Source of the DNA: an uncultured Saprospiraceae bacterium | Lineage (GTDB): Bacteria; Bacteroidota; Bacteroidia; Chitinophagales; Saprospiraceae | Assembly: GCA_964630705.1 (NCBI GenBank) | Contig: CAZVZH010000002.1 | Span: 3,727 to 67,726 of the forward strand | DNA: 64,000 nt | Direction of reading: 5' to 3' | Part shown: positions 3,601 through 54,608 of the stretch, one piece after another | Position numbering within the stretch: position 1 is the first letter of the stretch | Layout of the letters: every line of letters starts with the position of its first letter | Translations under genes and position numbers: made by a program | Notes under the pieces: model-generated | The model's input: only the letters and a program-made list of their open reading frames with translations | What the model was told of the DNA's origin: nothing | The model's database searches: none

Positions 3601-6600
3601 GTGAAATTGGGCCCGACGCTGGTGCCGGCGCCATTGAGGGTAATTTGGCTGGCTACACAAGTGAGGGCCATGCCCGGGCCGGCTTCTGCTTGCGGGGTAT
3701 TTTGGTCCAATAAAATTTGAACCGAGGAGGAGGCTGTACATCCCGTTTGGGTGTTTGTTACCACCAACAGGTAATTCCCCGAGCGGTCGATCTGCGGGTT
3801 GAGGCTGGTAGCGCCGGAAAGGATGTTTCCATTCACCGTACTCCACTGGTAGCTGTACGAACTGCCCTGGCTGGACCCACTGCCGTTCAAGGTCAAAACC
3901 GGGTTGGAGCAAGACAAGACGGCCGGGCTTCCGGCGTTGGCCACTGGGGGCGTCAGGTTCTGTGCAACGTTGACGCTGAACAGCGCCTCGCAGTTGTTGC
4001 TGCTGTTGAACACTGTCAGGGTATACTGCCCGGGCGCATTGACGGTCGGCGTGAGGGTGTTGGCTCCGGAAACAATGTTTCCTCCAGTGGTTGTCCAGTT
4101 GTATTGAATGCCCGCGCCGCTGGTAGAGCCAGTTCCATTTAATTGAATTTGTGTTACCGTGCAGGTCAGCAAACCGGGGGCCACCGCGATGGCTGTCGGC
4201 ACGTTCGCGTCTTTGTTGACCGACACCGAAGCGGTAGCCGTGCAGCCGTTGATGGTATCGGTAACTAATAAGGTATAATTCCCTGGAGCGTCTACTACCG
4301 GGCTAAGCGTGTTCGCCCCGGAGGCGATACTGCCGTTGGCTGTTGTCCAGAGGTAAACAAAAGCGGGTCCGGTGCTACCGCTGCCAGAAAGCGCAACCGT
4401 GGTAGCTGTGCAGGTGATGAGTCCGGGCGGGCCGGCATTGGCGTTGGGCAAGGCGGTGTTTTGTGAAATGTTGACCTGACTGGTAGCCGTGCAGCCGTTG
4501 GTCGTATTGGTAACCAACAAACTGTAGGCGCCGGGCTGGTCGACCACCGGGATGAGCGTGGTAGCGCCGGAAACGATGTTGCCGCCCGGGGAGCTGGTCC
4601 ACTGGTAGGTAAATGGCGCGCCGGTACTCGATCCGTTGCCGTTCAGGCTCAGTTGAGTATTGATACAATTTAACACAGCTGTTGGGCCGGCAACCGCAGT
4701 GGGAGTAGCCACGTCGGCCGGAATCAGCACGCTGGAAGCGGCTGTACAGCCGTTGGTCGTATTGGTAATGAGCAGGTTGTATGCGCCAGGCTGATTGACG
4801 ATCGGTGTCAGGGTGGCGCCGCCGGAAACAATGCCGGGTCCCGTCCAGGCGTAGATGAATTCGCTGCCCTGGCTGGAATTGGTTCCGTTGAGGCTCAGGC
4901 TGGTGACGAGGCAGTTCAGGGTGCTGGGCGGACCGGCGTTTGCCGTGGGCACGCTGGCGTCGGCGGTAACGGTGGTGGAAGCCGTTGCGGTACAGCCATT
5001 GGTCGAGTTCGTTACTATAAGGGTGTAATTACCCGTCGCACTGACTACCGGGTTGAGGGTCGTTTGTCCTGAAACAATGTTCCCGGCGAGGGTAGTCCAG
5101 TTGTAGCTGAAACCCGGGCCGGCGCTGGAGCCGGTACCGTCGAGCGTCAAGGTCGTAACTGTACAGCTCAGCACGCCGCCCAGCGCCACCGTGGCCGTTG
5201 GCAAAGCGGTGTTTTGATTTACGGTTACCGACGCGGCTGCCGTGCATCCGGTTTGGGTATTAATCACCGACAGTTCATAATTGCCAGGGGCGTTGACCAC
5301 TGGCGTGAGGGTATTCGCTCCCGACACAATATTGCCGTTTTGGGTGGTCCACACATAATTATACTGGGAACCCTGGGAAGAGCCGTTGCCGTTCAGGCTG
5401 AGTTGCTGAGCGGTACAGGTCAGCGTTTGGGCAGGCCCGGCGTCTGCTGTGGGGAAGGTTTGCGCGCTGGTCACCTGCACGGTTGTTTGGGCCGTGCAAC
5501 CATTTTCCACATTATACACCGTCAGGACATAAGCGCCCACCTGGTTGACCGTCGGCGTCAGGGTAAGGTGGCCGCTGACAATGTTGCCGTTGGTCGTCGT
5601 CCATTCATAGAAAAACGGATACCCCGCGGAAGAGCCCTGGCCGTTGAGCGTGGTTTGTGGATTTTGGCAGGTGATCGAAGCGGAAGGAATGGCGGTGGCC
5701 ACTGGCGGCGTGAGGTCTTGAGTCACGGTGACTGATGCCGTCGCGGTGCAGGCATTGTCGGTATTTACCACCACCAAATGGTAGGTGCCCACCTTGTCGA
5801 CTTCCGGGTAGGGTGTGCCGTTGCCACTGATGATATTGCCGTTCGGAGTCGTCCAGTTGTAATCAAAATTATTGCCCTGAGAGGAACCGCCGGCATCGAG
5901 TTGAACGGTGCTGAAGGTACAGTTCAGTTGCTGTGCAGGCGCGATGTCTGCCGTTGGATAAATAATATTGTCGTCGATAAACACTTCGTCTTCATCTGTA
6001 CAGCCGTTGGCGGTGTTCGTCACGATCAGGGTGTAAAAACCATAGGCGTTCACCACCGGGTTGAGCGTGTTGGCGCCGCTGACAATATTGCCGGGGTTGG
6101 CGACCCATTGGTAGCTAATGCCGTTGCCGGTGGAGGAGCCGCTGCCGCTGATTTGCAAGCTGGGGCTGGCGCAGGTCAGCTCGTCGTCGCTGCCGGCAAA
6201 AGCCAGGGGAGCGTTCTGGTCGGCCAAAATCGTGACCGAGCTCGAAGCCGTACAACCGTTGTTGAGGTTGGTTACGGTCAGGGAGTAGTTGCCGGCTTGA
6301 TCGACCACAGGGTTGAGCGTGTTTTCACCACTCACGATATTGCCGTTCGAGGTATACCATTCGTAAACAAAATTATTCCCTTGCGAGCCGCTGCCATTCA
6401 GCGTCAGTTGGGCCTGGTTGCAATTGAGCGTGGCGCCCGGTCCGGCGTTGGCTTGCGGCGGATTCAAACTGGCGATCACGATCACTGAGGCGGTGGCGGT
6501 GCAACCGCTTTGGGTGTCGGTGACGAGCAGGTTGTAGGTGCCGGCCTGGTTGACGGTCGGGTAGGGCGAGTTTTGGCCGCTGACAAAATTGCCGTTGGTA

Positions 6601-9600
6601 GTCGTCCAGGTAAAATTGATGTTAGTACCTTGAGTGGAAGCCCCGGCGTCGAGGTCGATTTGTGGCGAATAACAATTGACCTGTTCCGGCGGAGCGATGA
6701 GCGCTACCGGCTGGTCGAAATTGGCGTTTACTTCCACAAAATCCTCCGTCGTGCAACCATTGTTCGTATTCGTCACTACCAGATAGTACACACCCGGTTG
6801 GTTGACCGTGGGCGTGTACGTGTTGGCGCCATTGACAATGTTGCCCGGGTTGGCGGTCCACTGGATGGTGATGCCCGAGCCGCTGGTGCCCGAGCCTTGC
6901 AGTTGTTGGGTTGGGTTCAGGCAATTGAGCAGGAGCGGCGGTCCGGCATTCGCGTTCGGATAATTTTGGTTGGAGCTGACATTTACCGAGGCGGTGCTGG
7001 TGCAGCCGTTGGCCTGGTTGGTTACCTGGAGCACATAAGTGCCCGCCTGGCCCACCACGGGGTTGAGTGTGGTTTCGCCGCTGATAATTTCACCGTTGGT
7101 GGTCGTCCATTCATAGGTGAAATCAGGCCCTGCGCTGGAGCCGTTGCCGTTCAGGGTGAGCATCGGATTGGCGCAGGTGAGTAAGCCCGGCGCGGTAGCC
7201 ACCGCTACCGGAGGCGTGAGGTTGGAACTTACGCTTACCGAGCTGGTGGCGGTACAGCCGCTATCGGTGTTGGTCACGACGAGGGTATAGGTGCCGGCCT
7301 GGTTGACCGTTGGGTTGCTGGTATTTTGTCCGCCGGTGAAGTTGCCGGGGTTAGCCGTCCAGTTGTACGTAATGTTGCCCCCCTGCGAAGAGCCGCTGGC
7401 GTCGAGGTCAATTTCAGGATTGTAACAATTGATCTCCGCCGGGGGGGCGATGCTCGCCGTAGGCACGTCGAAGTTAGCCGTCACTTCCACAAAATCCGCA
7501 CTGGTGCAACCATTGGTCGTATTGGTCACCACCAAGGTGTACAAACCAGGTTGGTTGACCGTAGGCGTGTAGCTGTTGGCGCCGCTGACGATATTGCCGG
7601 GGTTGGCTGTCCACTGAACATTAAAGTTCGGGCCGGTGCTGCCAGAGCCTTGCAGTTGCAGGGTTGGCTGGGTGCAGTTCAACTCCAGCGGAGGCCCGGC
7701 ATTGGCGTCGGGTTGGTCCTGGTTGTCGTTGACATTGACCGTTACGGAGGCGGTGCAGCCGTTGTCGTTGTTGGTTACCACCAATGTGTAACTGCCGCCC
7801 TGGTTGACCACCGGGTTGAGGGTGGTTTCGCCGCTGACGAAGTTTCCGTTGACGGTCGTCCATTCATAGGAAAAATTCGGTCCGGTACTGGAGCCGTTTC
7901 CATTGATGGTCAGGGTTGGGTTTTGGCAGGTGATGGTTCCATTGGCCACGGCTACCGCTACGGGCGGCGTCAAGTTTGCCGTGACCGTGACGCTGGAGCT
8001 GGCCGTGCAATTGTTGTCGGTATTGGTGACGACGAGGGTGTAGGTGCCGCCCTGGTTGACGGTGGGGTTGGTGGTGTTTTGGCCCCCGGTGAAATTGCCG
8101 GGGTTGGCCGTCCAGTTGTACGTAAAATTGCCGCCTTGAGAGGAGCCGCTGCCGTCGAGTTCTATTTCCGGGTTGTTGCAATCTACCACAATGGGCGGCG
8201 CGACGGTCGCAGTGGGAAGGTCGGTATTTCCGCTCACCGTAACCGTCGCTTCTGCGGTACAGCCGTTGTTGGCGTTGGTGACTAAAATGCTGTATTCGCC
8301 GGCCTGGTTGACCTGAGGTTGCAGCGTGTTGGTGCAGCAGACGAAATTGCCGCCGTTGGTGCTCCAGGTGTAGCTGATGCCTGGGCCGGTGGAGGTGCCG
8401 ATGCCATTCAGGGTGACGACCGGCAGGTTGCAGCCGATATTTTGCGGGGTGTTGATATTCGCGTTCGGCGGCGTGTTATTTTCCGTGACGGTGACGGCTA
8501 CGGTGGCCGTGCAGCCGTTGTCGTTGTTGGTGACGGTGAGCGTGTAAGTGCCGCCGGCATTTACCTGGGGTTCCAGAGTATTGCCGCAACAAGTGATGCC
8601 CGGGCCATCCCACTCGTACGTAAACTGGGAGCCTTGCGACGAGCCGGTGCCGTTGATCGTAATTTCAGTATTGGTACAGGTGATCGGCGGCGGTGCGCTG
8701 GCTACGGCAGTGGGTAGGGTAGTGTTGGCTGTAATGCTGACCGTAGCGGTCGTGGAGCAGTTGTTGTTGTCGGTCACTGTGACGGTGTAGGTGCCTCCGG
8801 TGGTAAAGGTGGGGTCTTCGCCGTTGAAGTTATTGCTCCAGTTGAAATTGTACCCTGGGGTGCCGCCGCTCACTTCCAGGTCGGCGCTACCGGTGGGGTT
8901 GTTGCAATCGATATTGGTCGAACTGGTTACGCTGGCGGTCAGCTGGGGCGGTTCATCGAGGGTTACGCTTTCCGTAGCCGTGCAGCCCTGGCCGTTAGTA
9001 GCAGTCACCGTGTAGGTGCCAGGCGGCAGGTTCGATTGGTTGGGTCCGGTACCGCTGGGCGCCCAGGCATACGTGAAGGGCCCGTTTCCGCCGCTGGCGC
9101 TGGCTTGTATGGAGCCGTTGTTAGCGCCGAAACAGAGCGGATCGGTTGCGTTCAGGCTCAGATCGACGGTGATTTCATTGATGGTGACTGTTCCGCTGAC
9201 GGTGCCGGTACAGCCGTTTTGCGTGCTGACACTGGTGAGCGAGTAGGTGCCGGGTTCCGTTACGGTAATGATGGCCGGACTGCTGGTGTAGGTGTAGGTT
9301 TCGTTGGTGCCGTTGTTGTTAAATTCTACCTCCCAGGGCCCGATGCCGGTCATGGTGATGGTCAGGTTGACCGGCGTATTGCTGCCGGCGCAAAAGAACC
9401 CTGAGCCGGAAAGCGTGGCGGTGGGCGCAGGCTCGATGGTCACCGTGGCGGAGGCTGTAGCGGTGGTGCCGCAGTCGTCGCTTACCGTAACGGTGTAAGT
9501 ATGGGTGCCCGGGGTGTTCACGGTGATAGAAGGCGTAGTAGCATTATTGCTCCACAAATAGGTGTAGGGCGGCAGGCCTGGGCTGGTAATGTCCGGACTT

Positions 9601-11192
9601 AGGGTAGCGCCACTGGAGCCGCACACTTCCTGGTCTTCCAGTTCCACTTCGAGCGGGGGTTTGTCTTCGATGTAAAAGGTGAATTCCGAGGAAGCGCAGG
9701 AGCAGGGATTGTCCAGCATAATGATGATGGTTTCCTGTCCTTCAACAATGAAGTCTGCGAAAACACTAATGGGGATCAGTATTTCAGTTTGCCCGGCGGG
9801 TATGGTAACCGATCCCGGCAAGGGTTCGTAGTCGACGCCCGGCGTAGCGGTGCCGCCGATGGTGTAATTGATCACCAGCGGTTCATTGGTATTGCCGCCG
9901 GCCCGGATAAATTTGACAAAACCGCTGTCGCAGCCTTCGATCACATAGTTTTGCCCGGCTGGGTACACCGGTTGCGCTTTCACCACACCGCCGGCGTTGA
10001 ACGAGTTGGCTTTTAGAAAAACGGCGGAGAAAAGCAGGCCGTCGGCGATATCGGCGATGGCCAGTTTGATGTGGTAGGTGGAGCAAGGCGTCAGGCCGGT
10101 AGCATTGGCGGTGAGCACGGTGGTCCAGCCGTCGAGGGCGCATTCGGGGGCACAGCAGGCGCCTACGTTTTGGCAGGGGTTGAAGGTGTTGTTGTTGACG
10201 TAATAATTGGTGTTGGTGAGGTGGTTGACGTTGTTGATGGTGACCGGATTGCTGCTGTTGGGAATCAGCGCCAGGTTGGTCGGACCACTGAACCCGGGGC
10301 CGGAAATGAAAAACCCGAACACGTCATTGTAGTTGGAGTTGACAAACTCGCAGTATTCCTCTGAGCCGAAAACGTAGTCGAACTGAACTTCCGTAGCGGT
10401 GGGTGTAAAGTCGAATTCAATTTTGATAACATCCCACTGGTTGCCATTGGTTAGCGTAGCCAGGTCCGGGTCGTCGGCGGAGTTGACGTTAAAGCCCGCC
10501 GTATTGGCTGAAGTATTGCTGGCGTTGTTCGGGCCGGGCAAACTGTTGACGTTGCCGGTGCAAAGCACCATGCCGGTGGGAATGCCGATATTCGTACCGC
10601 CGTTGGTAAAGGTGCCGCGCGACTGCGCTGGGCCTTGCGAGGTGACGGCGCCAACATCGAAACAATCGCCCCCAATCAGGGTATTGGTAATCAGGCTGGT
10701 AGCCGACACGCCGCCGGTAACCGACAAGTTGGCCATGCCCAAACCTTCCAGATGTTTAACAAACCGGTCCATAAACTCGGAAGCCTCTGGGCAATCCACA
10801 CAGCCGACGGACAGCGAAATGGGCAGGTTGCCCGATTTTTCCGTGGTGTTTACCAACAGGCGCAGGTCTACGCATTCGCTTTCCGCAACAAACTGCCGGT
10901 GCTGCGGCTTGTCGGGCCGCGACATAGCTTTGGCCTTGGCCTCCAAAGCGTCGTCGGAAAGTTCCATTCGGAACGATACCGGCTGCCCTGGATAAGCGCC
11001 TACCGCCACCACGGAGTAGGTGGTGCCCGGACGGAGCCCGCACAGCTGAATAGTATTGACGCCGGCCGTCACCTCGATCGGTGTGCGTTGGCGTTGTTTG
11101 TCCAGCTGAACGGGGATTGCCGTTTGGGCGTACAGGAAAGAGTTGGAAAGGAACAGGGTTAAATACAGCGCATAAGTAAACTTTTGCCCCAT
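645..11192 (-). CDS. giant T9SS-secreted surface adhesin: choice-of-anchor-L-like region, Calx-beta-like module, SprB-type repeats, about 30 Cys-containing ~80-aa modules, T9SS type-B (gliding-motility CHU_C) C-terminal domain
   Basis: Uninterrupted 3515-aa ORF. Signal peptide LFLSNSFLYAQ. Motifs GIPTGMVLCTGNV and FDYVFGSEEYCEFVNSNYNDVFGFFISG (choice-of-anchor L), YTIGGTATPGVDYEPLPGSVTIPAGQTE (Calx-beta), CFGANNGSIQASASGGNGPFTYAW (SprB repeat). C-terminus IWAPNAISPN..DGKNDVF..YDRWGNQVF..GWNG..VFVWW is typical of the type-B T9SS sorting domain. Confidence 0.9.
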   Translation of the reverse strand: MGQKFTYALYLTLFLSNSFLYAQTAIPVQLDKQRQRTPIEVTAGVNTIQLCGLRPGTTYSVVAVGAYPGQPVSFRMELSDDALEAKAKAMSRPDKPQHRQFVAESECVDLRLLVNTTEKSGNLPISLSVGCVDCPEASEFMDRFVKHLEGLGMANLSVTGGVSATSLITNTLIGGDCFDVGAVTSQGPAQSRGTFTNGGTNIGIPTGMVLCTGNVNSLPGPNNASNTSANTAGFNVNSADDPDLATLTNGNQWDVIKIEFDFTPTATEVQFDYVFGSEEYCEFVNSNYNDVFGFFISGPGFSGPTNLALIPNSSNPVTINNVNHLTNTNYYVNNNTFNPCQNVGACCAPECALDGWTTVLTANATGLTPCSTYHIKLAIADIADGLLFSAVFLKANSFNAGGVVKAQPVYPAGQNYVIEGCDSGFVKFIRAGGNTNEPLVINYTIGGTATPGVDYEPLPGSVTIPAGQTEILIPISVFADFIVEGQETIIIMLDNPCSCASSEFTFYIEDKPPLEVELEDQEVCGSSGATLSPDITSPGLPPYTYLWSNNATTPSITVNTPGTHTYTVTVSDDCGTTATASATVTIEPAPTATLSGSGFFCAGSNTPVNLTITMTGIGPWEVEFNNNGTNETYTYTSSPAIITVTEPGTYSLTSVSTQNGCTGTVSGTVTINEITVDLSLNATDPLCFGANNGSIQASASGGNGPFTYAWAPSGTGPNQSNLPPGTYTVTATNGQGCTATESVTLDEPPQLTASVTSSTNIDCNNPTGSADLEVSGGTPGYNFNWSNNFNGEDPTFTTGGTYTVTVTDNNNCSTTATVSITANTTLPTAVASAPPPITCTNTEITINGTGSSQGSQFTYEWDGPGITCCGNTLEPQVNAGGTYTLTVTNNDNGCTATVAVTVTENNTPPNANINTPQNIGCNLPVVTLNGIGTSTGPGISYTWSTNGGNFVCCTNTLQPQVNQAGEYSILVTNANNGCTAEATVTVSGNTDLPTATVAPPIVVDCNNPEIELDGSGSSQGGNFTYNWTANPGNFTGGQNTTNPTVNQGGTYTLVVTNTDNNCTASSSVTVTANLTPPVAVAVANGTITCQNPTLTINGNGSSTGPNFSYEWTTVNGNFVSGETTLNPVVNQGGSYTLVVTNNDNGCTASVTVNVNDNQDQPDANAGPPLELNCTQPTLQLQGSGSTGPNFNVQWTANPGNIVSGANSYTPTVNQPGLYTLVVTNTTNGCTSADFVEVTANFDVPTASIAPPAEINCYNPEIDLDASGSSQGGNITYNWTANPGNFTGGQNTSNPTVNQAGTYTLVVTNTDSGCTATSSVSVSSNLTPPVAVATAPGLLTCANPMLTLNGNGSSAGPDFTYEWTTTNGEIISGETTLNPVVGQAGTYVLQVTNQANGCTSTASVNVSSNQNYPNANAGPPLLLNCLNPTQQLQGSGTSGSGITIQWTANPGNIVNGANTYTPTVNQPGVYYLVVTNTNNGCTTEDFVEVNANFDQPVALIAPPEQVNCYSPQIDLDAGASTQGTNINFTWTTTNGNFVSGQNSPYPTVNQAGTYNLLVTDTQSGCTATASVIVIASLNPPQANAGPGATLNCNQAQLTLNGSGSQGNNFVYEWYTSNGNIVSGENTLNPVVDQAGNYSLTVTNLNNGCTASSSVTILADQNAPLAFAGSDDELTCASPSLQISGSGSSTGNGISYQWVANPGNIVSGANTLNPVVNAYGFYTLIVTNTANGCTDEDEVFIDDNIIYPTADIAPAQQLNCTFSTVQLDAGGSSQGNNFDYNWTTPNGNIISGNGTPYPEVDKVGTYHLVVVNTDNACTATASVTVTQDLTPPVATAIPSASITCQNPQTTLNGQGSSAGYPFFYEWTTTNGNIVSGHLTLTPTVNQVGAYVLTVYNVENGCTAQTTVQVTSAQTFPTADAGPAQTLTCTAQQLSLNGNGSSQGSQYNYVWTTQNGNIVSGANTLTPVVNAPGNYELSVINTQTGCTAAASVTVNQNTALPTATVALGGVLSCTVTTLTLDGTGSSAGPGFSYNWTTLAGNIVSGQTTLNPVVSATGNYTLIVTNSTNGCTATASTTVTADASVPTANAGPPSTLNCLVTSLSLNGTNSSQGSEFIYAWTGPGIVSGGATLTPIVNQPGAYNLLITNTTNGCTAASSVLIPADVATPTAVAGPTAVLNCINTQLSLNGNGSSTGAPFTYQWTSSPGGNIVSGATTLIPVVDQPGAYSLLVTNTTNGCTATSQVNISQNTALPNANAGPPGLITCTATTVALSGSGSTGPAFVYLWTTANGSIASGANTLSPVVDAPGNYTLLVTDTINGCTATASVSVNKDANVPTAIAVAPGLLTCTVTQIQLNGTGSTSGAGIQYNWTTTGGNIVSGANTLTPTVNAPGQYTLTVFNSSNNCEALFSVNVAQNLTPPVANAGSPAVLSCSNPVLTLNGSGSSQGSSYSYQWSTVNGNILSGATSLNPQIDRSGNYLLVVTNTQTGCTASSSVQILLDQNTPQAEAGPGMALTCVASQITLNGAGTSVGPNFTYQWTASNGGNIVSGNTTLSPVVNAAGTYSLLVTNPSNGCTSTDATTVVVDVVPPIAQIGTPAVLNCLVSQTTLSTAGSSAGAQFTYKWTTVGGNILSGGSSPAPVVNKPGVYNLVITNTANGCTTTASTTVAQNIAPPTANAGPTAELNCINTTLTLNGSASNVGSNVQYGWTTANGNVLSGANSLNPVVNAPGVYVLTVTNLDNFCTATNQVAISQNVNLPTAATAAAPLLTCSSPVVVLNGNGSSAGAQFSYQWVAQNGGNITAGATTLLPSVNAPGLYILTVTNNNNKCTSTSSVTVNQNIQAPTAAAGNSTTLTCTTPSLQLNGAGSSTGPVFSYEWSTANGQILSGDTTLQPTIGAPGLYTLVVTNLSNGCTTTASVQILQDANAPVAAASTPGELTCNVPQLTLSGAGSSVGANFSYQWSTPDGAIQSGAAGLSPVVSQPGSYTLKVTNSANGCSETQTVTVSQNITPPTAEAGTAGTLTCAITQLSLNGLGTGGALGIGYAWSTVNGNILSGANTASPMVNTGGTYTLVVHDLYNGCTNTDQVLVPTDTQAPAIGIAHPGLLSCVVSQVPVNATASAQGPQYSYSWNGPGIVSGANSLQPVVNLPGSYQLSIVNNQNGCTSSATTTVTQNIQPPTAEAGTGFELTCSVEAGLLNANGSSNGPQFIYLWSTTDGNILSSPNAVAPQVDAPGTYTLLVTNTQTGCTATDAVLVTENTNYPTDLNLFTDPPGCGGKKGTIRFVEVLGGDSPYLYSIDGGNTFLTVNDFQNLNPGQYQLVIQDANGCEYSENLTFPVPVEPAVGLNPDISLAYGESATLTATLNIPIYQVDTIIWSPLEFLTPTNKPNVVVARPFTTTQFEVRVINLEGCEDRATVIVRVDDPHIWAPNAISPNREDGKNDVFLIFAAPNTVNKINSLQIYDRWGNQVFRKENIQPNDEKYGWNGRFRGQPMNPAVFVWWAEVELASGQKIVMKGDVTIVD
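1425..8720 (-). repeat. intragenic array of ~240-bp (80-aa) coding repeats with a nested ~750-bp three-module super-repeat (approx. 5640-8210)
   Basis: Recurring pattern L(T/N)C..L.G.GSS.G...Y.W....GNIVSG..T..P.V...G.Y.L.VTN...GCT about 30 times. Near-identical strings (NPEI.LD.SGSSQGGN.TYNWTANPGNFTGGQNT.NPTVNQ) recur every ~250 aa. Boundaries are approximate. Confidence 0.75.
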
Positions 11193-13092: not shown

Positions 13093-15498
13093 TCACACCC
13101 AGCTCGCCACACTGCCTGTTTCCCGCAGCTGCACCTCCAAAATATTGGGAAAATAGTCCTTCTGGCTGTCGATATGCGTGACGATATAAATCTGCCGGAA
13201 TTGCTCCTGCAGGAAATACAGGGCCAGCATCATCTCGTGGCGGCGCTCCTCATCCTGGCTGCCGAAAATTTCATCGAAGGCCAGAAACTCGACGCGCTGG
13301 CCGTTGCCGCTGAGGTCCATGATCGCTTTGGTGATGGCGATGCGCAGGCAGAAATTGGCCAGGTCGATCTCGCCGCCCGAGAAGCGTTCGATCGGGTAGA
13401 GGATGCCGCCGTCGGCGATGGCAAAGTCGAAATTTTCGTCCACTTCGATGCGCTCGTATTTCCCTTTGGTGATGCGGCTGAACAGTTCGCTGGCTTCTCG
13501 GGAAATGCTGGGGCTGATCTTTTCGAGAATCTCCGTTTTGAACTGCACCAGCAACTCGCCGAGTTGGCGCAGCACCTCGGCCTCGCCCAGCTTGGCGCTG
13601 ATTTGCCCGCGGATACTTTCGTTGGCCTGGAGCCGGGCCTGGATTTTTTCCATTTGGGTAACTAGCTCGTAGCCGGATTTCTCGAGCGCGCGCACCAGCT
13701 GCGACTGGCTGGAAAAACCTTCGCCAAATTGCGTGAGGGTATTTTTGGCAGCTTCGTATCGCCCGGCGTCGTAGCCGGTTTTTCCGGTTTCCGCTTGTGT
13801 TTGCTGCAGGATTTGGGTAGTTTCTTCGATCTGCGCTTCATGTTCCAGCAGATATTTTTTGGTGGCCGGCACCTCCCGCTCCAGGTAGCTGCGCTCGTTG
13901 GAAAATTGCAGGTACCGCGGCTCGGCAGCGGCTACTTTCGATTTCAGGGCCAGGTAGTCGGCTTCGTCGAATTGTACCGCACCGATTTCGGCCAGGATCG
14001 CCTGGATGCGGGCAGCCTGCGCTTCGAGTCGCCCGAAGGCTTCCTGCTCGCGGTGCTGTTGCTTGGCAATTTCTTCGAGCCGGGTTTGTTCTTCGCGCAG
14101 TTGTTGCTGACTTGTCTGGGCGGCGGCGAGTTGCTGCCGGAGTTGCAGACCTTCCAGCCGCACTGTTTCCTGTTCGGCCTGGAGCGCCTGGAGTTCCTGG
14201 ACTTGCAAGGTTTCGATCTCGAGGTTGAGTTGTTGCAACACATGGTCGTAGGCCTCCTGGACGGGTTGGTAGCAGGTCGGGCAGTTGCCGTCTTTGCCGA
14301 TAGCTTCGAGCTCGCCAATTTTTTTCCGGCGCTCATCGATGCGCACGCCCAGCGCCTCGGCCTGGCTTTTGATGCGGCTGTGGACCTGGAGCTTTTGCTC
14401 AATCTGTTGCTCTATCTGCTGAAGTTGTTGTTGTTTTTCAGCAAGTTCCCGGTCCAGCGCGGCTTTTTTTTGAAGCCGGGCGCCGAGCTCGCTCAGGCGC
14501 TCGCGGCTTTGTTGCAGGTTGGGTTCCAGTTCCTGAAGTTGGAGCAAGTTAGCCTTGCGGTTAAGGTGCTTTTGCCGCAGATTTTCGAGTTCGAGCAGTT
14601 GTTTTTTCTCGTGTTCGAATTCGGTGAATTCCGACAACTGAGCGGCAATTTTTTGCTCCAGTTGCTGCAAGCTGCGCCGTTTGTCTTGCAGGGCGGCAAG
14701 TTGCATGCGCAGCCCGGCCAAGCGTTCTTGTAGCCGGCCGATTTCCTGCTGGAGCGCGAGGTGCCGGCCTTGTTTTTTTTCCTCGGTTTCAAAATTGTTG
14801 CGGGCGGCGCTGTAGTCGCGCTCCACCTGTTGCAGCACTTTTTGCTCCTTTTTCAGCGCTTGCTGCCCCTTGCGCAGTTCACGCTGTTGCGCGGCGAGGT
14901 CTTTTTCCAGCTCGCGCGCAACGGCCGGGTCGAGCAGGTTTTGGCGTTGGCCGGCAATTTGGCTATTGAGGTCGCGGGCATCGATGTTGATCCGCGACTG
15001 TAGGGCGTCGAGGGTGTCGAGGCCGATCATTTTGCGGACCATGCGCTTGCGGGCCTCGCCGCTGGTATCGGACAGTTCGGACAGTTCTTTTTGGCCGGAA
15101 AAAACCGAGCGTTTGAAGGCGTCGCGCTCCATGTTGAGCACCCGCACCACTTCGTCATTCACTGGGGCTACGCCTTTGGCAATCAGTTCGTCGTTTTTGA
15201 ACAACTCGGCCTGCACAGTCATGGTTTTGCCCCGGAATTCGCGCCGCACGCGGTACAGGGCGGGGCCTACGGCAAATTCCAGCTGGAGTACTACCGCGGC
15301 TTTTTCCTCCGAAAAAGTGCTGCGAATCAGGTTTTTATTGCTCTCGTCTTTGCCGTACAAACAGTACAAAATAGCCTCGAACAAGGTCGATTTGCCCGCT
15401 CCGTTGCGCCCGATAATCCCTACCAGCCCCTCGCGGAACTCCAGGTCGAGGCTTTGGTACTGTTTGTAATGTTCCAGGTGTAGCTGGCGGAGGGTCAT
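13093..15498 (-). CDS. sbcC: SbcC/Rad50-family SMC-like ATPase (DNA double-strand break repair exonuclease subunit)
   Basis: Walker A GRNGAGKST. Long Q/E/L-rich coiled coil with a central CxxC zinc hook (GNCPTCYQP). ABC signature FSGGE, Walker B FLAFDEIFGSQD. Starts 3 nt downstream of the sbcD-like stop. Confidence 0.85.
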   Translation of the reverse strand: MTLRQLHLEHYKQYQSLDLEFREGLVGIIGRNGAGKSTLFEAILYCLYGKDESNKNLIRSTFSEEKAAVVLQLEFAVGPALYRVRREFRGKTMTVQAELFKNDELIAKGVAPVNDEVVRVLNMERDAFKRSVFSGQKELSELSDTSGEARKRMVRKMIGLDTLDALQSRINIDARDLNSQIAGQRQNLLDPAVARELEKDLAAQQRELRKGQQALKKEQKVLQQVERDYSAARNNFETEEKKQGRHLALQQEIGRLQERLAGLRMQLAALQDKRRSLQQLEQKIAAQLSEFTEFEHEKKQLLELENLRQKHLNRKANLLQLQELEPNLQQSRERLSELGARLQKKAALDRELAEKQQQLQQIEQQIEQKLQVHSRIKSQAEALGVRIDERRKKIGELEAIGKDGNCPTCYQPVQEAYDHVLQQLNLEIETLQVQELQALQAEQETVRLEGLQLRQQLAAAQTSQQQLREEQTRLEEIAKQQHREQEAFGRLEAQAARIQAILAEIGAVQFDEADYLALKSKVAAAEPRYLQFSNERSYLEREVPATKKYLLEHEAQIEETTQILQQTQAETGKTGYDAGRYEAAKNTLTQFGEGFSSQSQLVRALEKSGYELVTQMEKIQARLQANESIRGQISAKLGEAEVLRQLGELLVQFKTEILEKISPSISREASELFSRITKGKYERIEVDENFDFAIADGGILYPIERFSGGEIDLANFCLRIAITKAIMDLSGNGQRVEFLAFDEIFGSQDEERRHEMMLALYFLQEQFRQIYIVTHIDSQKDYFPNILEVQLRETGSVASWV

Positions 15499-15501
15499 GG
15501 T

Positions 15502-16629
15502 TTACGGTGTGCTGTGAAAATAGTAGGCGGCTTTTTCCGCGATTTGGGCGGCGAGTTGGGGATTGTCGGGAAACTTCTCGCGGATGTAGTCGTTGAAAAT
15601 CTGGTCGAGCCGGTCAAACTGGTCGGCTTCGAGCTGGCGCACGAAATTCCGGTCGGAAAAGCTGCGGCGGCGCGGCAGGATTTGAAGGGCTTCCGGGAAA
15701 AGCTCCTTCAAAAATGCGTTGGAGAGTTCGAGCGACTGTTCCACTTTTATATCGTTGAAAATCAGGGAAATGATCGCTCCTGAAGTGGTTTGCTGCCCGG
15801 CGAATTGCTCGAGCGCCCCCCGAAGTTCAGCCACTGGTTTTTGCCGGCAATTTTGAATTTCAAGTTTCAACCAGGGCCGGGTGGGCACCGCTTCAAAGCG
15901 CGTGGCGCATTGGCCTTTTTTATCTATTTCCAGCACCATGAACCCTTTTTCCGAGCCGATTTCAGTTTCGCTCAGTCGTTCGATGGAGCCGCAATACCAG
16001 GCATTGGCATGGAGGTCTATTTTTTGAAAATTGTGCCAGTGGCCCAGGGCGATGTATTGGAAGCCGGCGAGTTTTTCGATAAAATTTTCCGGGAACATTT
16101 GCTCGCCGTATTCCTCCATCAAAAAACGTTTGCCCAGGGAGGTGTGCAGCATCAGGAGGTTGAATTTGCCCGCCCGGGGCTGCATTTTTTCCAATTGCTC
16201 CTGCAAAATCCGGGTGTCGTTGATGTGCGGCAGGCCGTGGATGACCAGACCGTCCAGTTCGGCCGTTTCCCAGGCTTCGCCGAAAAAGGGGCGCACGCAG
16301 TCGAGGCTGCGAAAAGCGCGCAGGATCGGGCTGGTAAAAACGGTTTTGGGCGTTTCGTGGTTGCCGGCGATGACGTACACCGGAATGCGGGCGTCGCACA
16401 AGCGGCGGAGTTGCTCCAGTGCGACGGTGAGCGCCCGGTTGGAGGGGCTGGGTCGGTGGAAAAAATCGCCGGAGTGGACCACAGCGTCGGGTTTCAACTC
16501 GAGGATGCGTTGAATGGTGTGCGCGAAGGCGTCATATACATCCTGTTCCCGGGCGTTGATGCCCTGGGGCGTTACCTGGTCGAAAGCCTGAAAACCCAGG
16601 TGGGTGTCGGAAAAATGGACGATGCGCAT
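15502..16629 (-). CDS. sbcD: SbcD/Mre11-family metallophosphoesterase nuclease
   Basis: MRIVHFSDTHLG, HSGDFFH, IAGNHE and GHWH calcineurin-like phosphoesterase motifs. Directly upstream of sbcC. Confidence 0.85.
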   Translation of the reverse strand: MRIVHFSDTHLGFQAFDQVTPQGINAREQDVYDAFAHTIQRILELKPDAVVHSGDFFHRPSPSNRALTVALEQLRRLCDARIPVYVIAGNHETPKTVFTSPILRAFRSLDCVRPFFGEAWETAELDGLVIHGLPHINDTRILQEQLEKMQPRAGKFNLLMLHTSLGKRFLMEEYGEQMFPENFIEKLAGFQYIALGHWHNFQKIDLHANAWYCGSIERLSETEIGSEKGFMVLEIDKKGQCATRFEAVPTRPWLKLEIQNCRQKPVAELRGALEQFAGQQTTSGAIISLIFNDIKVEQSLELSNAFLKELFPEALQILPRRRSFSDRNFVRQLEADQFDRLDQIFNDYIREKFPDNPQLAAQIAEKAAYYFHSTP

Positions 16630-40267: not shown

Positions 40268-41794
40268 CTACTTCGGCAACAGTTTTTTTACCTCCGTTAC
40301 GATATCATTGTAGGCTGCGTCGCTGTTGGGGAAATCCGACACCGTACGATTCATGGTCGGCAGCGAGCGCAGTTTTTCCAGGCCGGTGCCGTCGATGTCG
40401 AGTTTTTCGATATGTACGGGTATGACCCGTTTCCCAGCTCCCATGGCGCTCAAAAGGAGATGAAACCAGGTTTCCTCGTTGAACAGGTTGGGCGTGATCA
40501 GCACCATGATGTAATCGGCCGAAGCCAGTTCGGCTTCAGCGCGCGCTTTTACATCCTCACCGGCAGGCGCTTCGTGCACATTGTAAATCTGAATTTTTTT
40601 AGTCGCCTTCAGAATGAACAAGTGCCGGTTGAATACCTGGCAGTGCGGCGTGTCCTGCACATCGTACACCACCACAAATTTGGGCACGGCATTGGCGGCG
40701 GGTGGCGCCGGCGTGGGGGCGGGCGCTTGTGCGGATTCTGTTCCGCCGGAACTTGCTGCGGGCGCCGGATTCGTTCTGGGTGCGGCTGTTTTTCCTAAAA
40801 CCTGAAAAATATCGCGAAACAACACCCCCCGGTTAGCGCCTTTCCGGTCGCCTTTGGCATTGATCTGTAAGCCGCCCTCGGCTTCGGTTTTGCCGGCGTG
40901 GTGGATGGCGATCACCTTCCAGTCTTTGTTGAACACCGGAGCGCCGCTGCTGCCCGGTTCGGTATCGGTCGTGTAGTACACGTGTTGGTTCCACACGCTG
41001 AGCACTTCGTTGGCGTTGAGGGCAATTTGTTTGTCCTGACCTTTCGGGTGCTGGATGATCGTCACCGGCTCGCCAACGGTAGGAATGGCGCTGGGGTCGA
41101 ACTGGACGAAGCCCCACTGGCGGAGCGGCGTTTGCGGGTTGTCAATGATTTTTACCCGGCAAAAATCAAACTGGTCGGGCGTGCTGGTTTGAAAATCGGA
41201 GGGGTCCAATTGGTACGAGGTCCGGGTTTTGGTATTTCCGGCTGCGTCCATTTCATAGTTGAATTCAATCCGGGCGTCGCGGGCCACATCTGCCGAAGGG
41301 ATCACGTGGTTGTTGGTAAACAGATACCCGTCTTCTGTGAGAAATCCGCTGCCCAATTCGCCGTCGGCGCACACCACCCGGCAAACGGCCTTCGATGCCT
41401 GAAGGGCTTTTTCCAGCCAATTTATTTTAAGCAGGTTATTCTGCGGGCCGATAATTTTTTCCAAACGGGCTTCATCGGGCACCTGGAATTGAAAGGTGGT
41501 CAGGCTTCGAATTTGCGCGTCGCGGTCGATGCGGCGGGGCACCTCTTTCATCAATTCCAGCAGGCCGAAACAAGTGCGCGCCGAGATGCGGGAATACTCT
41601 TCGAAGCTGATCATGCCCCGTTGGAACATTTTGCTGGCCTCTTTGAAATTGCCCGATTGTAAAATGATGTCCTGCCGCAAGCCCGCTTGCGCCTGCTTGT
41701 CGAGTTCGAGCAGGGCGTCGAGGGCTTTTTCCACCTCTTTGTCGGCGAGGAGGCCTTCAATGGTTTGCAGGTATACGAGTTGAGCGTTTTGCAT
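40268..41794 (-). CDS. three-module predicted conflict effector: N-terminal helical adaptor-like domain, trypsin-fold serine protease, TIR-like domain
   Basis: aa 1-85 helical. Protease triad candidates are His in FTNNHVIP, Asp in QFDFCRVKI and Ser in TEPGSSGAPVF. P/A-rich linker. C-terminal KFVVVYDVQD...AGEDVKARAEAELASADYIMVLITPNLFNEETW...KRVIPVHIEKLD matches the TIR_2 pattern. Confidence 0.75.
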   Translation of the reverse strand: MQNAQLVYLQTIEGLLADKEVEKALDALLELDKQAQAGLRQDIILQSGNFKEASKMFQRGMISFEEYSRISARTCFGLLELMKEVPRRIDRDAQIRSLTTFQFQVPDEARLEKIIGPQNNLLKINWLEKALQASKAVCRVVCADGELGSGFLTEDGYLFTNNHVIPSADVARDARIEFNYEMDAAGNTKTRTSYQLDPSDFQTSTPDQFDFCRVKIIDNPQTPLRQWGFVQFDPSAIPTVGEPVTIIQHPKGQDKQIALNANEVLSVWNQHVYYTTDTEPGSSGAPVFNKDWKVIAIHHAGKTEAEGGLQINAKGDRKGANRGVLFRDIFQVLGKTAAPRTNPAPAASSGGTESAQAPAPTPAPPAANAVPKFVVVYDVQDTPHCQVFNRHLFILKATKKIQIYNVHEAPAGEDVKARAEAELASADYIMVLITPNLFNEETWFHLLLSAMGAGKRVIPVHIEKLDIDGTGLEKLRSLPTMNRTVSDFPNSDAAYNDIVTEVKKLLPK

Positions 41795-41834: not shown

Positions 41835-42347
41835 TTACACCAGGCGCCGGTGCCAGCTTTGCGAAAAAGGCAGCAGCCATTTTTCCTGGAGTTCCAGTTT
41901 GTTTTGCACCAGGGTGTTGACCATGAGCGTGTCGGCTGTGATGGTTTTTTCGGCAAGATGCCGGCTGAGCTCTTCCCGGCCTGCAAATTGAAGTTTGCTT
42001 TCGTGCACCCAGGCAAAGCGCATGCGTTCGAAAAAATCGATATTCAGCTGGTGCCCCAGCGCTTCGAGGAAATGTACGGACTTGTCGATGGAGCAGCCGC
42101 TGGCGCCGGCTTGCGTTTCGTCGACCATGAGGACAACAAACTGGTTTTCAAAAATTTCTGCAGTGGCCTTCAACGCCTGGTTGTGCGCTGTCCATTGTCG
42201 CACAAAGTGCGCGAGCGCCTGTTCGGCCACTTCCTTTTCTTCGGCATTGAGCGGCCGGCTGATCGTATACACCCAAACACGGGATTGGGGAGCATAACCG
42301 GCAGCGGAGGCCAGGCTGGGGGTCAGTGAAGTTGGCGTACTGGTCAT
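41835..42347 (-). CDS. conserved hypothetical protein
   Basis: 170-aa ORF whose start overlaps the upstream gene's stop by 4 nt. No catalytic motif recognised. Confidence 0.55.
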   Translation of the reverse strand: MTSTPTSLTPSLASAAGYAPQSRVWVYTISRPLNAEEKEVAEQALAHFVRQWTAHNQALKATAEIFENQFVVLMVDETQAGASGCSIDKSVHFLEALGHQLNIDFFERMRFAWVHESKLQFAGREELSRHLAEKTITADTLMVNTLVQNKLELQEKWLLPFSQSWHRRLV

Positions 42348-52571: not shown

Positions 52572-53852
52572 TTACAAGTCGTATTGTTTGATCTTCCGGT
52601 ACAGGGTGCGTTCCGAAATCTTCAGTTCTTCGGCCGCCTCCTTGCGTCGTCCATTGTATTTTTTCAGCGCCCGGCGGATGGCATCTTTTTCGATTTCATC
52701 CATGGCTAGCGGCGCGTCTTCCACTTCAGAACGGTCGAAAACGTTGGCGTTGGAGGGCTTGGAAGGTTCCAGGATAATGGGCGTCACCCTGCCGGATTCC
52801 GCTGCTGCGGTATCGCGCGGCCGGTAAGGCTCGTCGGCTTCGTCATCGGTTGGAGGAAAGCCCAGTGAAGGTTGCAAGCGCCGGTAGCTGTTTGGGTCGG
52901 GCACGCGCAGGTCGTTGTTGTGAATGAGCTCAAAAATCAGGGATTTGAGATCGTTCAGGTCGGTTTTCATATCGACCAGAAGTTTGTAAAAGATTTCGCG
53001 CTCCTGAAAATCGCCGCCGGGTTTGCGGTTGTGCCAATCTGATACCATCGGCAGGTTGCGGGAAAGCACCTGTGGCATCTGTTGCTGTAAGGCCTGCGCG
53101 GTAACCTCCCGGTCTTCGGAGAGAATGGACAGTTGCTCGGCGATATTTTTGAGCTCGCGAATATTGCCTGGCCAACGGTACGATTCGAGCGCATACTGCG
53201 CCTGGTCGTCGAGCCGGATCGGTTGCATCCGGTATTTTTCCGCAAAATCAGACGCAAATTTCCGGAACAACAGCATGATGTCTTCCCGCCGGTCTTTTAG
53301 CGCGGGCACCCGGATGGGCACGGTGCTGAGACGGTAGTACAGGTCTTCCCGAAATTTGCCCTTCCGCACCCGTTCTTCCAAATCGACATTCGTAGCGGCA
53401 ATAACGCGCACGTCCGTTTTTTGAACTTTGGAAGAGCCGACCCGCAAAAACTCGCCCGACTCCAGCACGCGCAGCAGAAAGGCTTGGGTGTCGAGCGGCA
53501 TTTCTGCAATCTCATCGAGAAAAATCGTGCCGCCATTGACGGTTTCAAAATAACCCTTACGGTCGGATACTGCGCCGGTGAACGAGCCTTTTTCGTGGCC
53601 GAAAAGTTCGGAGTTGATGGTGCCTTCAGGAATGGCGCCGCAGTTGACCGCGATGAACTCGTTGTGTTTGCGGGCGCTGAGCGCATGAATTATTTTTGAA
53701 AAAACCTCCTTGCCTACGCCACTTTCGCCCATGATGAGTACGCTCAGATCGGTAGGCGCCACTCGGGCGGCGGTTTCCAAAGCTGCGTCGAGGAGATGGG
53801 AATTACCCACTATCCCGAATCGCGCTTTTATTCCTTGCAATTGATTGGCCAT
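52572..53852 (-). CDS. sigma-54-dependent transcriptional activator (AAA+ and Fis-type HTH, no receiver domain)
   Basis: Walker A GESGVGKE, GAFTGA-like GSFTGAV, ELFGHEKG, WPGNIRELKN, C-terminal HTH (ISERTLYRKIKQY). Confidence 0.9.
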   Translation of the reverse strand: MANQLQGIKARFGIVGNSHLLDAALETAARVAPTDLSVLIMGESGVGKEVFSKIIHALSARKHNEFIAVNCGAIPEGTINSELFGHEKGSFTGAVSDRKGYFETVNGGTIFLDEIAEMPLDTQAFLLRVLESGEFLRVGSSKVQKTDVRVIAATNVDLEERVRKGKFREDLYYRLSTVPIRVPALKDRREDIMLLFRKFASDFAEKYRMQPIRLDDQAQYALESYRWPGNIRELKNIAEQLSILSEDREVTAQALQQQMPQVLSRNLPMVSDWHNRKPGGDFQEREIFYKLLVDMKTDLNDLKSLIFELIHNNDLRVPDPNSYRRLQPSLGFPPTDDEADEPYRPRDTAAAESGRVTPIILEPSKPSNANVFDRSEVEDAPLAMDEIEKDAIRRALKKYNGRRKEAAEELKISERTLYRKIKQYDL

Positions 53853-53858
53853 GTTTTT

Positions 53859-54608
53859 TTAGTTGCAACCTGGGCTCAAGCGTACGTTCGCTTCGTCGTT
53901 CCATACCCAGCCTTCGATGTTTTTGTAGCGGACTTTTAAAAACTCGATTTCTCCCAATTCGGCGTCAGTTTGAATTTTTGTCTCCAAGACTTCCAATGCT
54001 ACATCGGCGGGCACCATGCCGGCTTCCAAGGCTGCATGATCGGCCTCCTCCAGCAGTTGAATGTCTTCCAGCGTTGTCAGATAGCAACCGCTCGTTTCGT
54101 CGGCTCCGGCCGGATCGGCTGCGGCGGCGCCAGCGGCGCTTCCAGTGTCAGTTTCATGGAATTCGGTTGCTTGCCCCGCATCGGTTGCGCCAGTATCGCA
54201 CATGCTAATCCCGACGACAAAGAGTGCGATGGCGCCAATAGCGACGACGATGTATTTGTAAACGTTATTTCCGCCGGCGCCCGCAGCCGCAGCGCCAACC
54301 GCCGGCGGAGCGGCTGAAAAAATCGGATGCTCATCACTTTTGCCGGTAAGGGCGTCGGTCAGGCTCAGCATCGAAACCCGAATCTGGTTGCGGTTGCGCT
54401 CGGCTTGCTCGAAGGCGATCAGCCCTTGCAATTCGGCTTTTTTTACCTCCGAAATCTGCCCCTGCAAGTGGATGATTTCATTTCTCACCTTGTTCGCCTG
54501 GCCAGACGACAGGTTGGATTCGGCGTAGGTGCCCAGCAGTTTTACAGCATCTTCCAGATCGCCTTTTGCCAGCAGTTCTTTTACTTGGGTAATGATCAGT
54601 GGTTCCAT
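53859..54608 (-). CDS. hypothetical bitopic membrane protein: N-terminal helical adaptor-like module, single TM, SH3-like C-terminal domain
   Basis: aa 1-90 helical, resembling the N-terminus of the 40268-41794 protein. TM YKYIVVAIGAIALFVVGISM. C-terminus ...EIEFLKVRYKNIEGWVWNDEANV is SH3b-like. Confidence 0.6.
   Translation of the reverse strand: MEPLIITQVKELLAKGDLEDAVKLLGTYAESNLSSGQANKVRNEIIHLQGQISEVKKAELQGLIAFEQAERNRNQIRVSMLSLTDALTGKSDEHPIFSAAPPAVGAAAAGAGGNNVYKYIVVAIGAIALFVVGISMCDTGATDAGQATEFHETDTGSAAGAAAADPAGADETSGCYLTTLEDIQLLEEADHAALEAGMVPADVALEVLETKIQTDAELGEIEFLKVRYKNIEGWVWNDEANVRLSPGCN

Follow-up and report, generated by a model that had tools for sequence, protein, structure and literature searches.

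A 64,000-nucleotide stretch of contig CAZVZH010000002.1 from an uncultured Saprospiraceae bacterium, hereafter the window, carries a 508-aa gene (40268..41794) that fuses an EAD11 adaptor, a serine protease of subfamily S1B and a TIR-like domain. Window coordinates are used throughout unless another locus is named, and all features so placed lie on the reverse (-) strand. In filamentous Saprospiraceae the same modules are stably inherited as a pair of genes, of which this gene is the fused version. Its product therefore probably acts as a component of a protease pathway linked by adaptors rather than as a stand-alone, NAD-destroying defence toxin. We favour a reading in which the protease is the sole enzymatic output, becomes active on clustering through EAD11 docking and self-association of the TIR-like domain, and has its pairing with that domain, seen in the split form, hard-wired by the fusion. 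The interactions and the mode of activation are inferred, and we assign this reading a probability of about 0.5. The protein would then belong to an EAD11 adaptor network of the kind computationally described for conflict and cell-death systems of multicellular bacteria.

Domain architecture of the fusion protein

The gene, delimited from the list of open reading frames (ORFs), homologues and an AlphaFold2 model, opens with ATG, and orthologues that are 45-84% identical have both its architecture and its MQNAQ start. A homology search retrieved 731 homologues, and public annotation describes the relatives as trypsin-like peptidase or TIR domain proteins. One partial NCBI protein (P0012) and the protein P0273 each show 100% identity to a protein encoded in the window. 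The full-length AlphaFold2 model, with 83 family members as alignment input, reaches a mean predicted local distance difference test score (pLDDT) of 87.2. It consists of a four-helix module (aa 2-95), two conserved helices with a trypsin fold (aa 105-335), a disordered linker (aa 336-367) and a compact domain of alternating beta strands and alpha helices (aa 372-504). The protein has no signal peptide and is cytoplasmic. Residue counts given below out of 83 refer to the fused family members in the alignment.

The N-terminal 95 residues (41510..41794) are an EAD11 adaptor, an all-helical module recognised by Pfam and the model and predicted to dock homotypically. The EAD11 profile (PF19964) matches aa 9-86 (E = 1.4e-14; 54.3 bits, cut-off 26), and the modelled helices span aa 2-17, 21-35, 40-58 and 64-95. 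In this protein EAD11 is N-terminal and is followed by Trypsin_2 and the TIR-like domain.

A conserved helical lead-in and a V8/Spl-type (S1B) protease of trypsin fold occupy aa 105-335 (40790..41482), as found by Pfam, Foldseek and phmmer. Trypsin_2 matches aa 148-297 (E = 1.5e-24), and the alignment places the catalytic triad at H163 (41306-41308), D210 (41165-41167) and S283 (40946-40948), in the order canonical for S1 chymotrypsin-fold proteases. These residues are conserved in 81/83, 83/83 and 80/83 family members, respectively. The modelled domain, with pLDDT above 90 over most of its length, superposes on active proteases; its fold matches include FAM111A, V8, Esp, Spl, exfoliative toxin and DegS (E = 1e-13 to 1e-10). 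The sequence matches found by phmmer are Spl proteases and glutamyl endopeptidases, which places the protease in S1B. Judged by its triad, the protease is predicted to be catalytically intact. PADLOC adds weak matches to its RT-Protease_XI and LmuA models. A specificity for Glu, which might be read from the IHHAG motif, was rejected because the same His occurs in Spl proteases of other specificities.

An original prediction, made from the sequence of this DNA, had given the ORF exactly as it stands in the ORF list, and its division of the protein into four parts agrees with Pfam, PADLOC and AlphaFold2/Foldseek. The helical N-terminal module that it took for an Effector-Associated Domain (EAD) is EAD11. 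Its trypsin-fold protease with a candidate His/Asp/Ser triad is confirmed by the Trypsin_2 match, the conserved H163, D210 and S283 and the fold matches; the Pro/Ala-rich linker between protease and TIR-like domain is present and predicted to be disordered; and the fold of the C-terminal TIR-like domain is upheld by a separate domain model and Foldseek. Of the families that it proposed for comparison, the EAD family, as EAD11, scores above its Pfam cut-off, Trypsin_2 matches the protease, and TIR_2 stays below its cut-off.

Fused and split forms of the module

The family was surveyed at 85 loci, comprising a scan of one genome per species and six additional loci, and the forms were called with local profiles of the three modules. 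The module is fused at 35 loci, split at 25 into an EAD11-protease gene followed by an EAD11-TIR-like gene, and represented by EAD11-protease only at the other 25. For instance, a 3.67-Mb Saprospiraceae contig (L006) encodes a 334-aa EAD11-protease that is 65% identical to aa 1-335 of the fusion protein. The gene of a 242-aa EAD11-TIR-like protein follows after 86 nt; the TIR-like part of this protein and aa 358-508 of the fusion protein share 57% identity (E = 6e-60). This 242-aa protein was also considered as a counterpart of the membrane-bound EAD11 protein described below, a candidate rejected by BLASTP; it corresponds to the EAD11-TIR-like half of the fusion. At some loci (L035 and L041), additional tandem paralogues occur or an EAD11-only gene separates the members of the split pair; in split relatives, two or three EAD11 genes stand in tandem.

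Fused and split forms interleave in a neighbour-joining tree of the protease domain; the tree is rough, and the interleaving indicates that fusion or fission happened more than once. That the modules occur in both forms argues strongly, on genomic grounds, for joint action of the protease and the TIR-like module. Comparison of their domain arrangements suggests that the EAD11 pair does in the split form the job of the covalent link in the fused form. The gene is thus not "stand-alone", as it had been called: it is the fused form of a two-gene EAD11 module, and the same adaptor occurs on a second protein of the window and on Roc-COR, STAND and KAP nucleoside triphosphatases (NTPases) elsewhere.

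In a more distant group (L065, L067, L069, L075 and L082), the EAD11-protease is followed by an Amidohydro_2-type metal hydrolase of ~437 aa (e.g. L082:11040-12353), with no TIR-like gene. The recurrence of this partner in five loci suggests that the general module is an EAD11-protease with a variable partner. One of these loci (L082) also encodes, ~2 kb away, a 429-aa protein with a C-terminal EAD11. Moreover, the deepest lineages encode, at a distance of ~5 kb from the split pair, an EAD11 protein of a third type (L064:16460-17113, L066:16006-16590, L072:15953-16585 and L073:15910-16734), built of EAD11, a poly-Pro linker and a C-terminal domain of ~90 aa rich in Trp, Tyr, Phe and Met. Outside Bacteroidota, an EAD11-protease homologue of 38% identity is found on the chromosome of Archangium gephyra (L081, 9971-10966), a myxobacterium and hence also of a multicellular lineage.

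A conserved acidic motif in the linker

The Pro/Ala-rich linker (aa 336-367; 40694..40789) is predicted by the model to be disordered. Its pLDDT is below 50 over aa 336-360 and 362-367, and it is hypervariable in sequence and length, the segment corresponding to aa 326-374 measuring 45-102 residues across the family. Within it, the linker alignment reveals a G-x-E-S island (GTESA, aa 351-355; 40730..40744), with E353 conserved in 74/83, S354 in 65/83 and G351 in 50/83 members. The split EAD11-TIR-like genes carry a related motif, (G/A)L-x-E-(S/T)-D-F, at the junction of EAD11 and linker, ~20 aa before the TIR-like domain. S1B proteases cleave in a sequence-specific manner, and their number includes several glutamyl endopeptidases. 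The island is therefore a candidate processing or pseudo-substrate site.

These observations bear on an alternative in which the activated protease would cut at the Glu-Ser site, or in the split form at the E-S/T-D-F junction after EAD11, and thereby free the TIR-like domain, which would be a substrate or cargo instead of the organiser, for action elsewhere, comparable to the unmasking of metallo-beta-lactamase (MBL) pro-nucleases by trypsin-like proteases. A conserved acidic motif in an otherwise hypervariable, disordered linker, present in fused and split forms alike, argues for such cleavage, as does the specificity typical of the S1B group. Protease/proenzyme pairs have been shown experimentally (PMC12799240), and related EAD11-proteases have other partners, namely the Amidohydro_2 proteins of the five loci and a fused caspase. 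However, the domain set free would carry no evident catalytic residue, the cleavage specificity is not readable from the sequence, and the motif could equally cap the last EAD11 helix in the split form or be an inherited remnant in the fused one. We regard release of the TIR-like domain as unlikely, though marginally more probable than the other alternatives to clustering of the protease.

A TIR fold without the catalytic Glu

Residues 368-508 (40271..40693) form a TIR-fold domain without the canonical catalytic Glu, as indicated by the domain model, Foldseek and an alignment with ThsB. Pfam TIR_2 scores 20.4-23.2 bits against a cut-off of 28; a precomputed PF13676 match is present on some orthologues, and PADLOC ThsB1 matches aa 374-504 (E = 2.2e-7). 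A sequence-only profile search of the domain against the PDB was weak (best TIR match at E ~0.5), and hence a comparison of folds was needed. Modelled alone, the domain has a pLDDT of 87.5 and a predicted TM-score (pTM) of 0.82. Almost all of its top 50 PDB matches in Foldseek are TIR domains (E = 2e-5 to 8e-4, TM-score up to 0.68), including SARM1, RPS4, TRR-2, TRAM, BtpA, MyD88, MAL, AbTir, ThsB and SpbK; the minority consists of a few related deoxyribosyltransferase (NDT) and MilB folds.

Catalytic TIR domains such as those of AbTir, ThsB, SARM1 and plants possess a WxxxE motif on helix alpha-C. In the ThsB alignment, the fusion protein has W443-F-H-L-L447 (40454-40468) in its place. In the family profile alignment, W-V-R-Y-E-I-M of ThsB (6LHY, 9B7D) falls onto W-F-G-.-L-V-L, so that the ThsB Glu stands on a hydrophobic column. 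Glu was never observed at position 446 or 447 among 60 domains (34 fused and 26 from split genes); 446 is mostly Leu, Met or Val, and 447 mostly Val, Ile, Leu, Ala or Met. W443, the Gly/Asp of the BB-loop and D381 are conserved. Only one other well-conserved acid could stand in for the catalytic Glu: E473, in a GTGLE motif (aa 469-473; 40376-40390) found by alignment and recalling the GTxxE of LOG/SLOG proteins. It is present in 76/83 fused members and replaced by Val or Ala in the deepest split lineages. E473 as a relocated catalytic acid was downgraded for this reason, as no acid is universal at either candidate position.

With the canonical Glu absent and E473 not universal, NADase or cyclase activity of a known kind appears unlikely in this domain. 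The original prediction had put "both enzymatic heads on one chain" and had itself named a missing catalytic Glu as evidence to the contrary; the TIR part lacks the canonical Glu in 60/60 domains.

An active TIR-like domain, acting as NADase or signal generator through a non-canonical acid such as E473, would turn the protein, together with its protease, into an abortive-infection toxin complete in itself, or into a pair of the type IV Thoeris kind wired in cis. We hold this to be unlikely as well. It would fit the TIR fold and the ThsB1 match, the conservation of W443, BB-loop and D381, and the prevalence of E473 in fused members; type IV Thoeris provides a precedent for an operon of TIR and protease (10.1101/2024.10.24.620036), and the NDT and MilB folds among the matches use differently placed acids. 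The hydrophobic column without exception and the loss of E473 in the deepest split lineages nevertheless leave the domain without a universal acid. Moreover, no ThsA-like, caspase-like or signal-binding partner was found near the gene, and a Thoeris gene pair is accordingly absent there; the locus is not a defence island, and a scan of viral contigs yielded no relatives.

The EAD11 network

EADs are small non-catalytic terminal domains, one copy standing on a core component and others on effectors that are encoded in the same operon or elsewhere in the genome; homotypic EAD-EAD interaction has been proposed to couple core and effectors, and EADs are enriched in multicellular bacteria (Kaur et al., PMC7159879, PMC8195603). 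The supplement of PMC8195603 holds an LRR-AP-GTPase-COR-EAD11 protein of the filamentous Haliscomenobacter hydrossis. Beyond this entry, EAD11 is not mentioned in the consulted parts of the texts of PMC7159879 and PMC8195603 and of the supplement of the 2020 paper.

A word-indexed search with the 95-aa EAD11 profile gave 4 fragments only, and an exhaustive profile search of cluster representatives was used instead, in which 1729 representatives match. Among the best 143 of these 1729, EAD11 is fused on the effector side to Trypsin_2, TIR_2/TIR/ThsB_TIR, caspase/CHAT, SIR2, PNPase and calcineurin-type domains, and on the NTPase side to AAA_16, nSTAND1, Roc, COR-A/B, LRR and KAP; other EADs also occur. 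Single architectures include WD40-COR-trypsin-EAD11, COR-trypsin-HTH (helix-turn-helix)-EAD11 and EAD11-trypsin-caspase (P0141), the last of which parallels the arrangement that we propose.

A second EAD11 gene (53859..54608; 249 aa) lies 12 kb from the fusion gene, between miaB and the gene of a sigma54-type AAA+ ATPase. Pfam (EAD11, E = 1.7e-14), hydropathy and a family alignment resolve its product, EAD11-TM, into a cytoplasmic EAD11 (54324-54608), one transmembrane helix (54198-54263) followed by an acidic spacer, and a C-terminal domain of ~75 aa with two invariant Cys and a GWV motif (53862-54095). The ATPase gene (52572..53852), recognised by domain search as a sigma54-interaction AAA+ ATPase with a C-terminal Fis-type HTH, starts 6 nt past the EAD11-TM stop. 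Its AAA+ domain begins at residue 14, no receiver, CARF or other N-terminal sensor domain is present, and only positions 164-416 of the 481-position PADLOC RtcR_PspF2 profile, the AAA+/HTH part, are covered. By analogy with PspF, the ATPase may be regulated in trans.

The order miaB, EAD11-TM, sigma54 AAA+ is kept in four other contigs (L086, L087, L088 and L090), with gaps of 7-60 nt before the ATPase gene. One of these contigs (L090) belongs to the same metagenome-assembled genome (ERZ24842498, Saprospiraceae_M3007_2) as the 82% orthologue of the fusion gene, and hence both EAD11 genes co-occur in at least two genomes. From its adaptor, EAD11-TM is a candidate docking partner of the fusion protein. 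The earlier statement that no STAND, NACHT or AAA partner lies within ~20 kb thus stands for STAND and NACHT, since no STAND, NACHT or Roc NTPase is encoded in the window, and is incomplete for AAA, given the second EAD11 gene 12 kb away, which has the sigma54 AAA+ gene directly downstream.

A proposed clustering-activated protease

In the reading that we prefer, the protease would be the only enzymatic output of the protein, inactive as a monomer and active on clustering. Clustering would come about through EAD11-EAD11 contacts, either with EAD11-TM or with EAD11-tagged Roc-COR/STAND NTPases elsewhere in the genome, and also through self-association of the non-catalytic TIR-like domain, comparable to MyD88 or CARD/caspase platforms. 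The role of the TIR-like domain would accordingly be that of a scaffold or regulator. In the split form EAD11 would join the protease and the TIR-like protein; in the fused form this link would be hard-wired, and the remaining EAD11 could connect the protein to the network. Mutual control of the protease and the TIR-like domain may operate through the Glu-Ser island, as a site of cleavage or a pseudo-substrate. Candidate physiological outputs are a stress response, abortive infection and regulated lysis in filaments. The logic has experimental precedents: trypsin-like proteases can activate a partner proenzyme, HamA domains fused to such proteases have lost their catalytic motif (PMC12799240), and type IV Thoeris pairs a protease with a TIR, although that TIR is catalytic (10.1101/2024.10.24.620036).

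Several points weigh against this reading. The P1 specificity of the protease is unreadable from sequence, because the His of IHxxG is common to S1B proteases of different specificity; the two EAD11 domains of the window are only 23% identical; the 64 kb encode no EAD11-tagged NTPase, no other EAD11-tagged P-loop protein and no further EAD11; and deep conservation in a housekeeping context is unusual for an immune effector.

A more elaborate proposal would place the fusion protein in a chromosomally fixed pathway resembling the Myddosome or apoptosome of animals. EAD11-TM, with a small outer domain containing a disulfide and encoded beside the sensor-less, PspF/RtcR-like sigma54 AAA+ activator, would sense envelope damage or invasion. 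By EAD11-EAD11 contacts it would recruit the EAD11-protease, whose partner would be a non-enzymatic TIR scaffold, MyD88-like in the split form and hard-wired in the fused one. Regulated proteolysis would follow, for instance as programmed death of the cell or breakage of the filament, and perhaps also a transcriptional response through sigma54. We regard this proposal as rather improbable. If true, it would mean that a death-fold/TIR/protease pathway has been domesticated and vertically inherited, as distinct from a mobile phage-defence gene.

Chromosomal setting and inheritance

The context of the fusion gene across genomes was read from its orthologue loci. Its neighbours in the window are purE, purK, Fer4, CCG and a 170-aa ORF, so the original prediction was right to place the gene between purE and a cluster of Fe-S genes (Fer4/CCG). 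Orthologues that are 82%, 74% and 49% identical stand in the same order (Pribosyltran, Fer4, CCG, an ORF of 165-172 aa, the fusion gene), and in the two closer ones purE, purK, PrmC and HisKA follow on the opposite strand. Across the 85 loci, the slot between Fer4-CCG-170-aa ORF and purE is occupied in many lineages by the fused gene; distant lineages (39-45% identity; L063, L064, L066, L072 and L073) have the split pair there. At three further loci (L033, L035 and L037), the split pair occupies this slot with an insert of ~4 kb between the 170-aa ORF and the pair. The insert was considered as a partner NTPase and rejected; it is an ORF of ~1160 aa with a signal-peptide-like N-terminus. Most other split pairs (12-13 loci; L042, L039, L043-L055) share a second slot, NAD kinase | pair | SecDF, where the TIR-fold gene may have come to lie near NAD kinase by chance.

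The gene also diverges much like its neighbours: its identity is 81% in L001 (neighbours 65-90%), 73% in L002 (57-86%) and 49% in L005 (48-80%). GC content is unremarkable, a PADLOC scan of the uncharacterised neighbours yielded no defence proteins, and no MBL gene is present in the neighbourhood. The module has long resided on the Saprospiraceae chromosome and is passed on vertically. The originally proposed "abortive-infection effector", if taken as a defence-island gene, is not supported, given synteny at 39-82% identity, a neighbour-like rate and the absence of viral relatives. The original prediction had also stated that a conserved syntenic core gene with no toxicity or NADase activity would speak against it, and of this the synteny is what we found.

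The conserved 170-aa ORF (41835..42347; from the ORF list) has no Pfam or PADLOC match. Its place is always behind the CCG/Fer4 genes, with an overlap of 4 nt with CCG, and in most cases directly upstream of the EAD11-protease module; the fusion gene starts 40 nt past its stop on the same strand. A sigma70 promoter and terminator scan around the gene, which does not cover Bacteroidota promoters, gave counts no higher than in shuffled sequence. This spacing, with no terminator above chance, makes co-transcription with the Fe-S cluster plausible. At two loci (L004 and L016) the 170-aa ORF remains with CCG even though the protease gene is elsewhere, and we therefore regard the association with the Fe-S genes as one of position, not of necessity.

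A housekeeping protease of normal physiology, domesticated, co-transcribed with the upstream Fe-S cluster and without a role in conflict or cell death, would fit the spacing, the adjacency to Fe-S genes down to 39-49% identity, the neighbour-like divergence and the equally housekeeping character of the second slot, but it is the least probable of the alternatives, since all domains of the protein are of kinds usual in conflict or cell-death systems, the other companions of EAD11 are NTPase sensors, caspases, TIR and SIR2, CCG keeps the 170-aa ORF even where the gene lies elsewhere, and the pair also occupies an unrelated second slot.

Elsewhere, the window encodes a giant ORF of 3515 aa with a signal-peptide-like N-terminus (645..11192), probably a secreted or surface protein. 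An SMC/SbcC-like ABC ATPase (801 aa) lies upstream of an SbcD/Mre11-like phosphoesterase (375 aa, start MRIVHFSDTHLG) at 13093..16629. The ATPase has generic PADLOC matches to the N-terminal ATPase regions of LmuB, AriA and GajA, and the two genes are most simply the SbcCD repair genes, not a defence system. No tRNA genes and no Rfam families at the gathering threshold were found in the window.

Implications and comparison with known systems

Although less dramatic than a stand-alone double-enzyme toxin, the fusion protein lends itself to a clean test of the EAD hypothesis, and equally of the idea that TIR domains of bacteria can be non-enzymatic. EAD adaptors are the proposed bacterial counterparts of animal death-fold adaptors, and the family is a compact natural system in which to examine this; the occurrence of the same two modules as a pair and as a fusion is natural genetic evidence for EAD11 replacing a physical link. 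The family also suggests that a bacterial TIR fold has been kept without its catalytic Glu over hundreds of species, which points to scaffold or regulatory TIR domains as in animal MyD88 and TLRs. For annotation, the Glu of WxxxE should be checked before a TIR call is read as an NADase. Moreover, architectures of the conflict type can be stable syntenic residents in multicellular bacteria, which bears on the domestication of immune and cell-death modules.

We agree with the original prediction that no characterised system has this exact composition, and its general likeness to NTPase-centred conflict systems is upheld. The protein is a member of the computationally defined class of EAD-coupled effectors (PMC7159879, PMC8195603; PF19964). 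Like them, it has a small helical adaptor at a terminus, joined to domains of effector type (trypsin and TIR); the same EAD recurs on several genes of a genome, the lineage is filamentous (multicellular), and EAD11 is also present on Roc-COR, STAND and KAP proteins. It differs from them in having no adjacent or in-window NTPase core, two effector-type domains on one chain, a TIR without the catalytic Glu, and a fixed, syntenic and slowly evolving gene instead of a variable one. New relative to the cited EAD literature are the family of fused and split EAD11-protease/TIR-like genes, the loss of the catalytic Glu throughout its TIR-like domains, the synteny in two housekeeping slots, and the EAD11-TM gene beside a sensor-less AAA+ activator.

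Among S1B proteases (V8/GluV8, Esp, SplA-F and the exfoliative toxins) and FAM111A, the fold, triad and GSSG...IHxxG motifs are as in the fusion protein. However, those S1B proteases are toxins that are secreted, and FAM111A is a protease of the nucleus, whereas the present protease is cytoplasmic and embedded between an adaptor and a TIR-like domain. With ThsB and the bacterial TIR NADases (6LHY, 9B7D, AbTir), the TIR-like domain shares the fold, the Trp of WxxxE and, for ThsB1, the profile match; their catalytic Glu is replaced in the present family by Leu or Val, and a ThsA-type effector is lacking.

In type IV Thoeris a TIR-fold protein and a protease are likewise encoded together as a pair (10.1101/2024.10.24.620036). 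There, however, the TIR is catalytic and its N7-cADPR activates a caspase-like protease, whereas here the protease is a trypsin-fold S1B enzyme, the TIR-like domain has no catalytic Glu, the partners carry EAD11 or are fused, and the context is not a defence island. The trypsin-like protease/MBL pro-nuclease pairs of Hachiman, Avs, Lamassu and DRT (PMC12799240) also combine a protease with a dedicated partner: the proteases activate partner proenzymes, activation depends on oligomerisation, and the protease-fused HamA domains have lost their own catalytic motif and are regulators. They differ in that the partner here is of TIR fold and not an MBL nuclease, coupling is through EAD11, and no Hachiman, Avs, Lamassu or reverse transcriptase core is present.

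The second gene of the split form, EAD11 with a Glu-less TIR, follows the same logic as MyD88, which joins a death domain to a non-enzymatic TIR, and the family can be set beside the CARD/caspase platforms of animals; this is an analogy only. The TIR domains of MyD88, MAL and TRAM are among the best fold matches of the TIR-like domain. In the published profile network EAD11 is unconnected to death-like domains and matches only itself; a kinase is absent from the Saprospiraceae module, whose output would be a serine protease.

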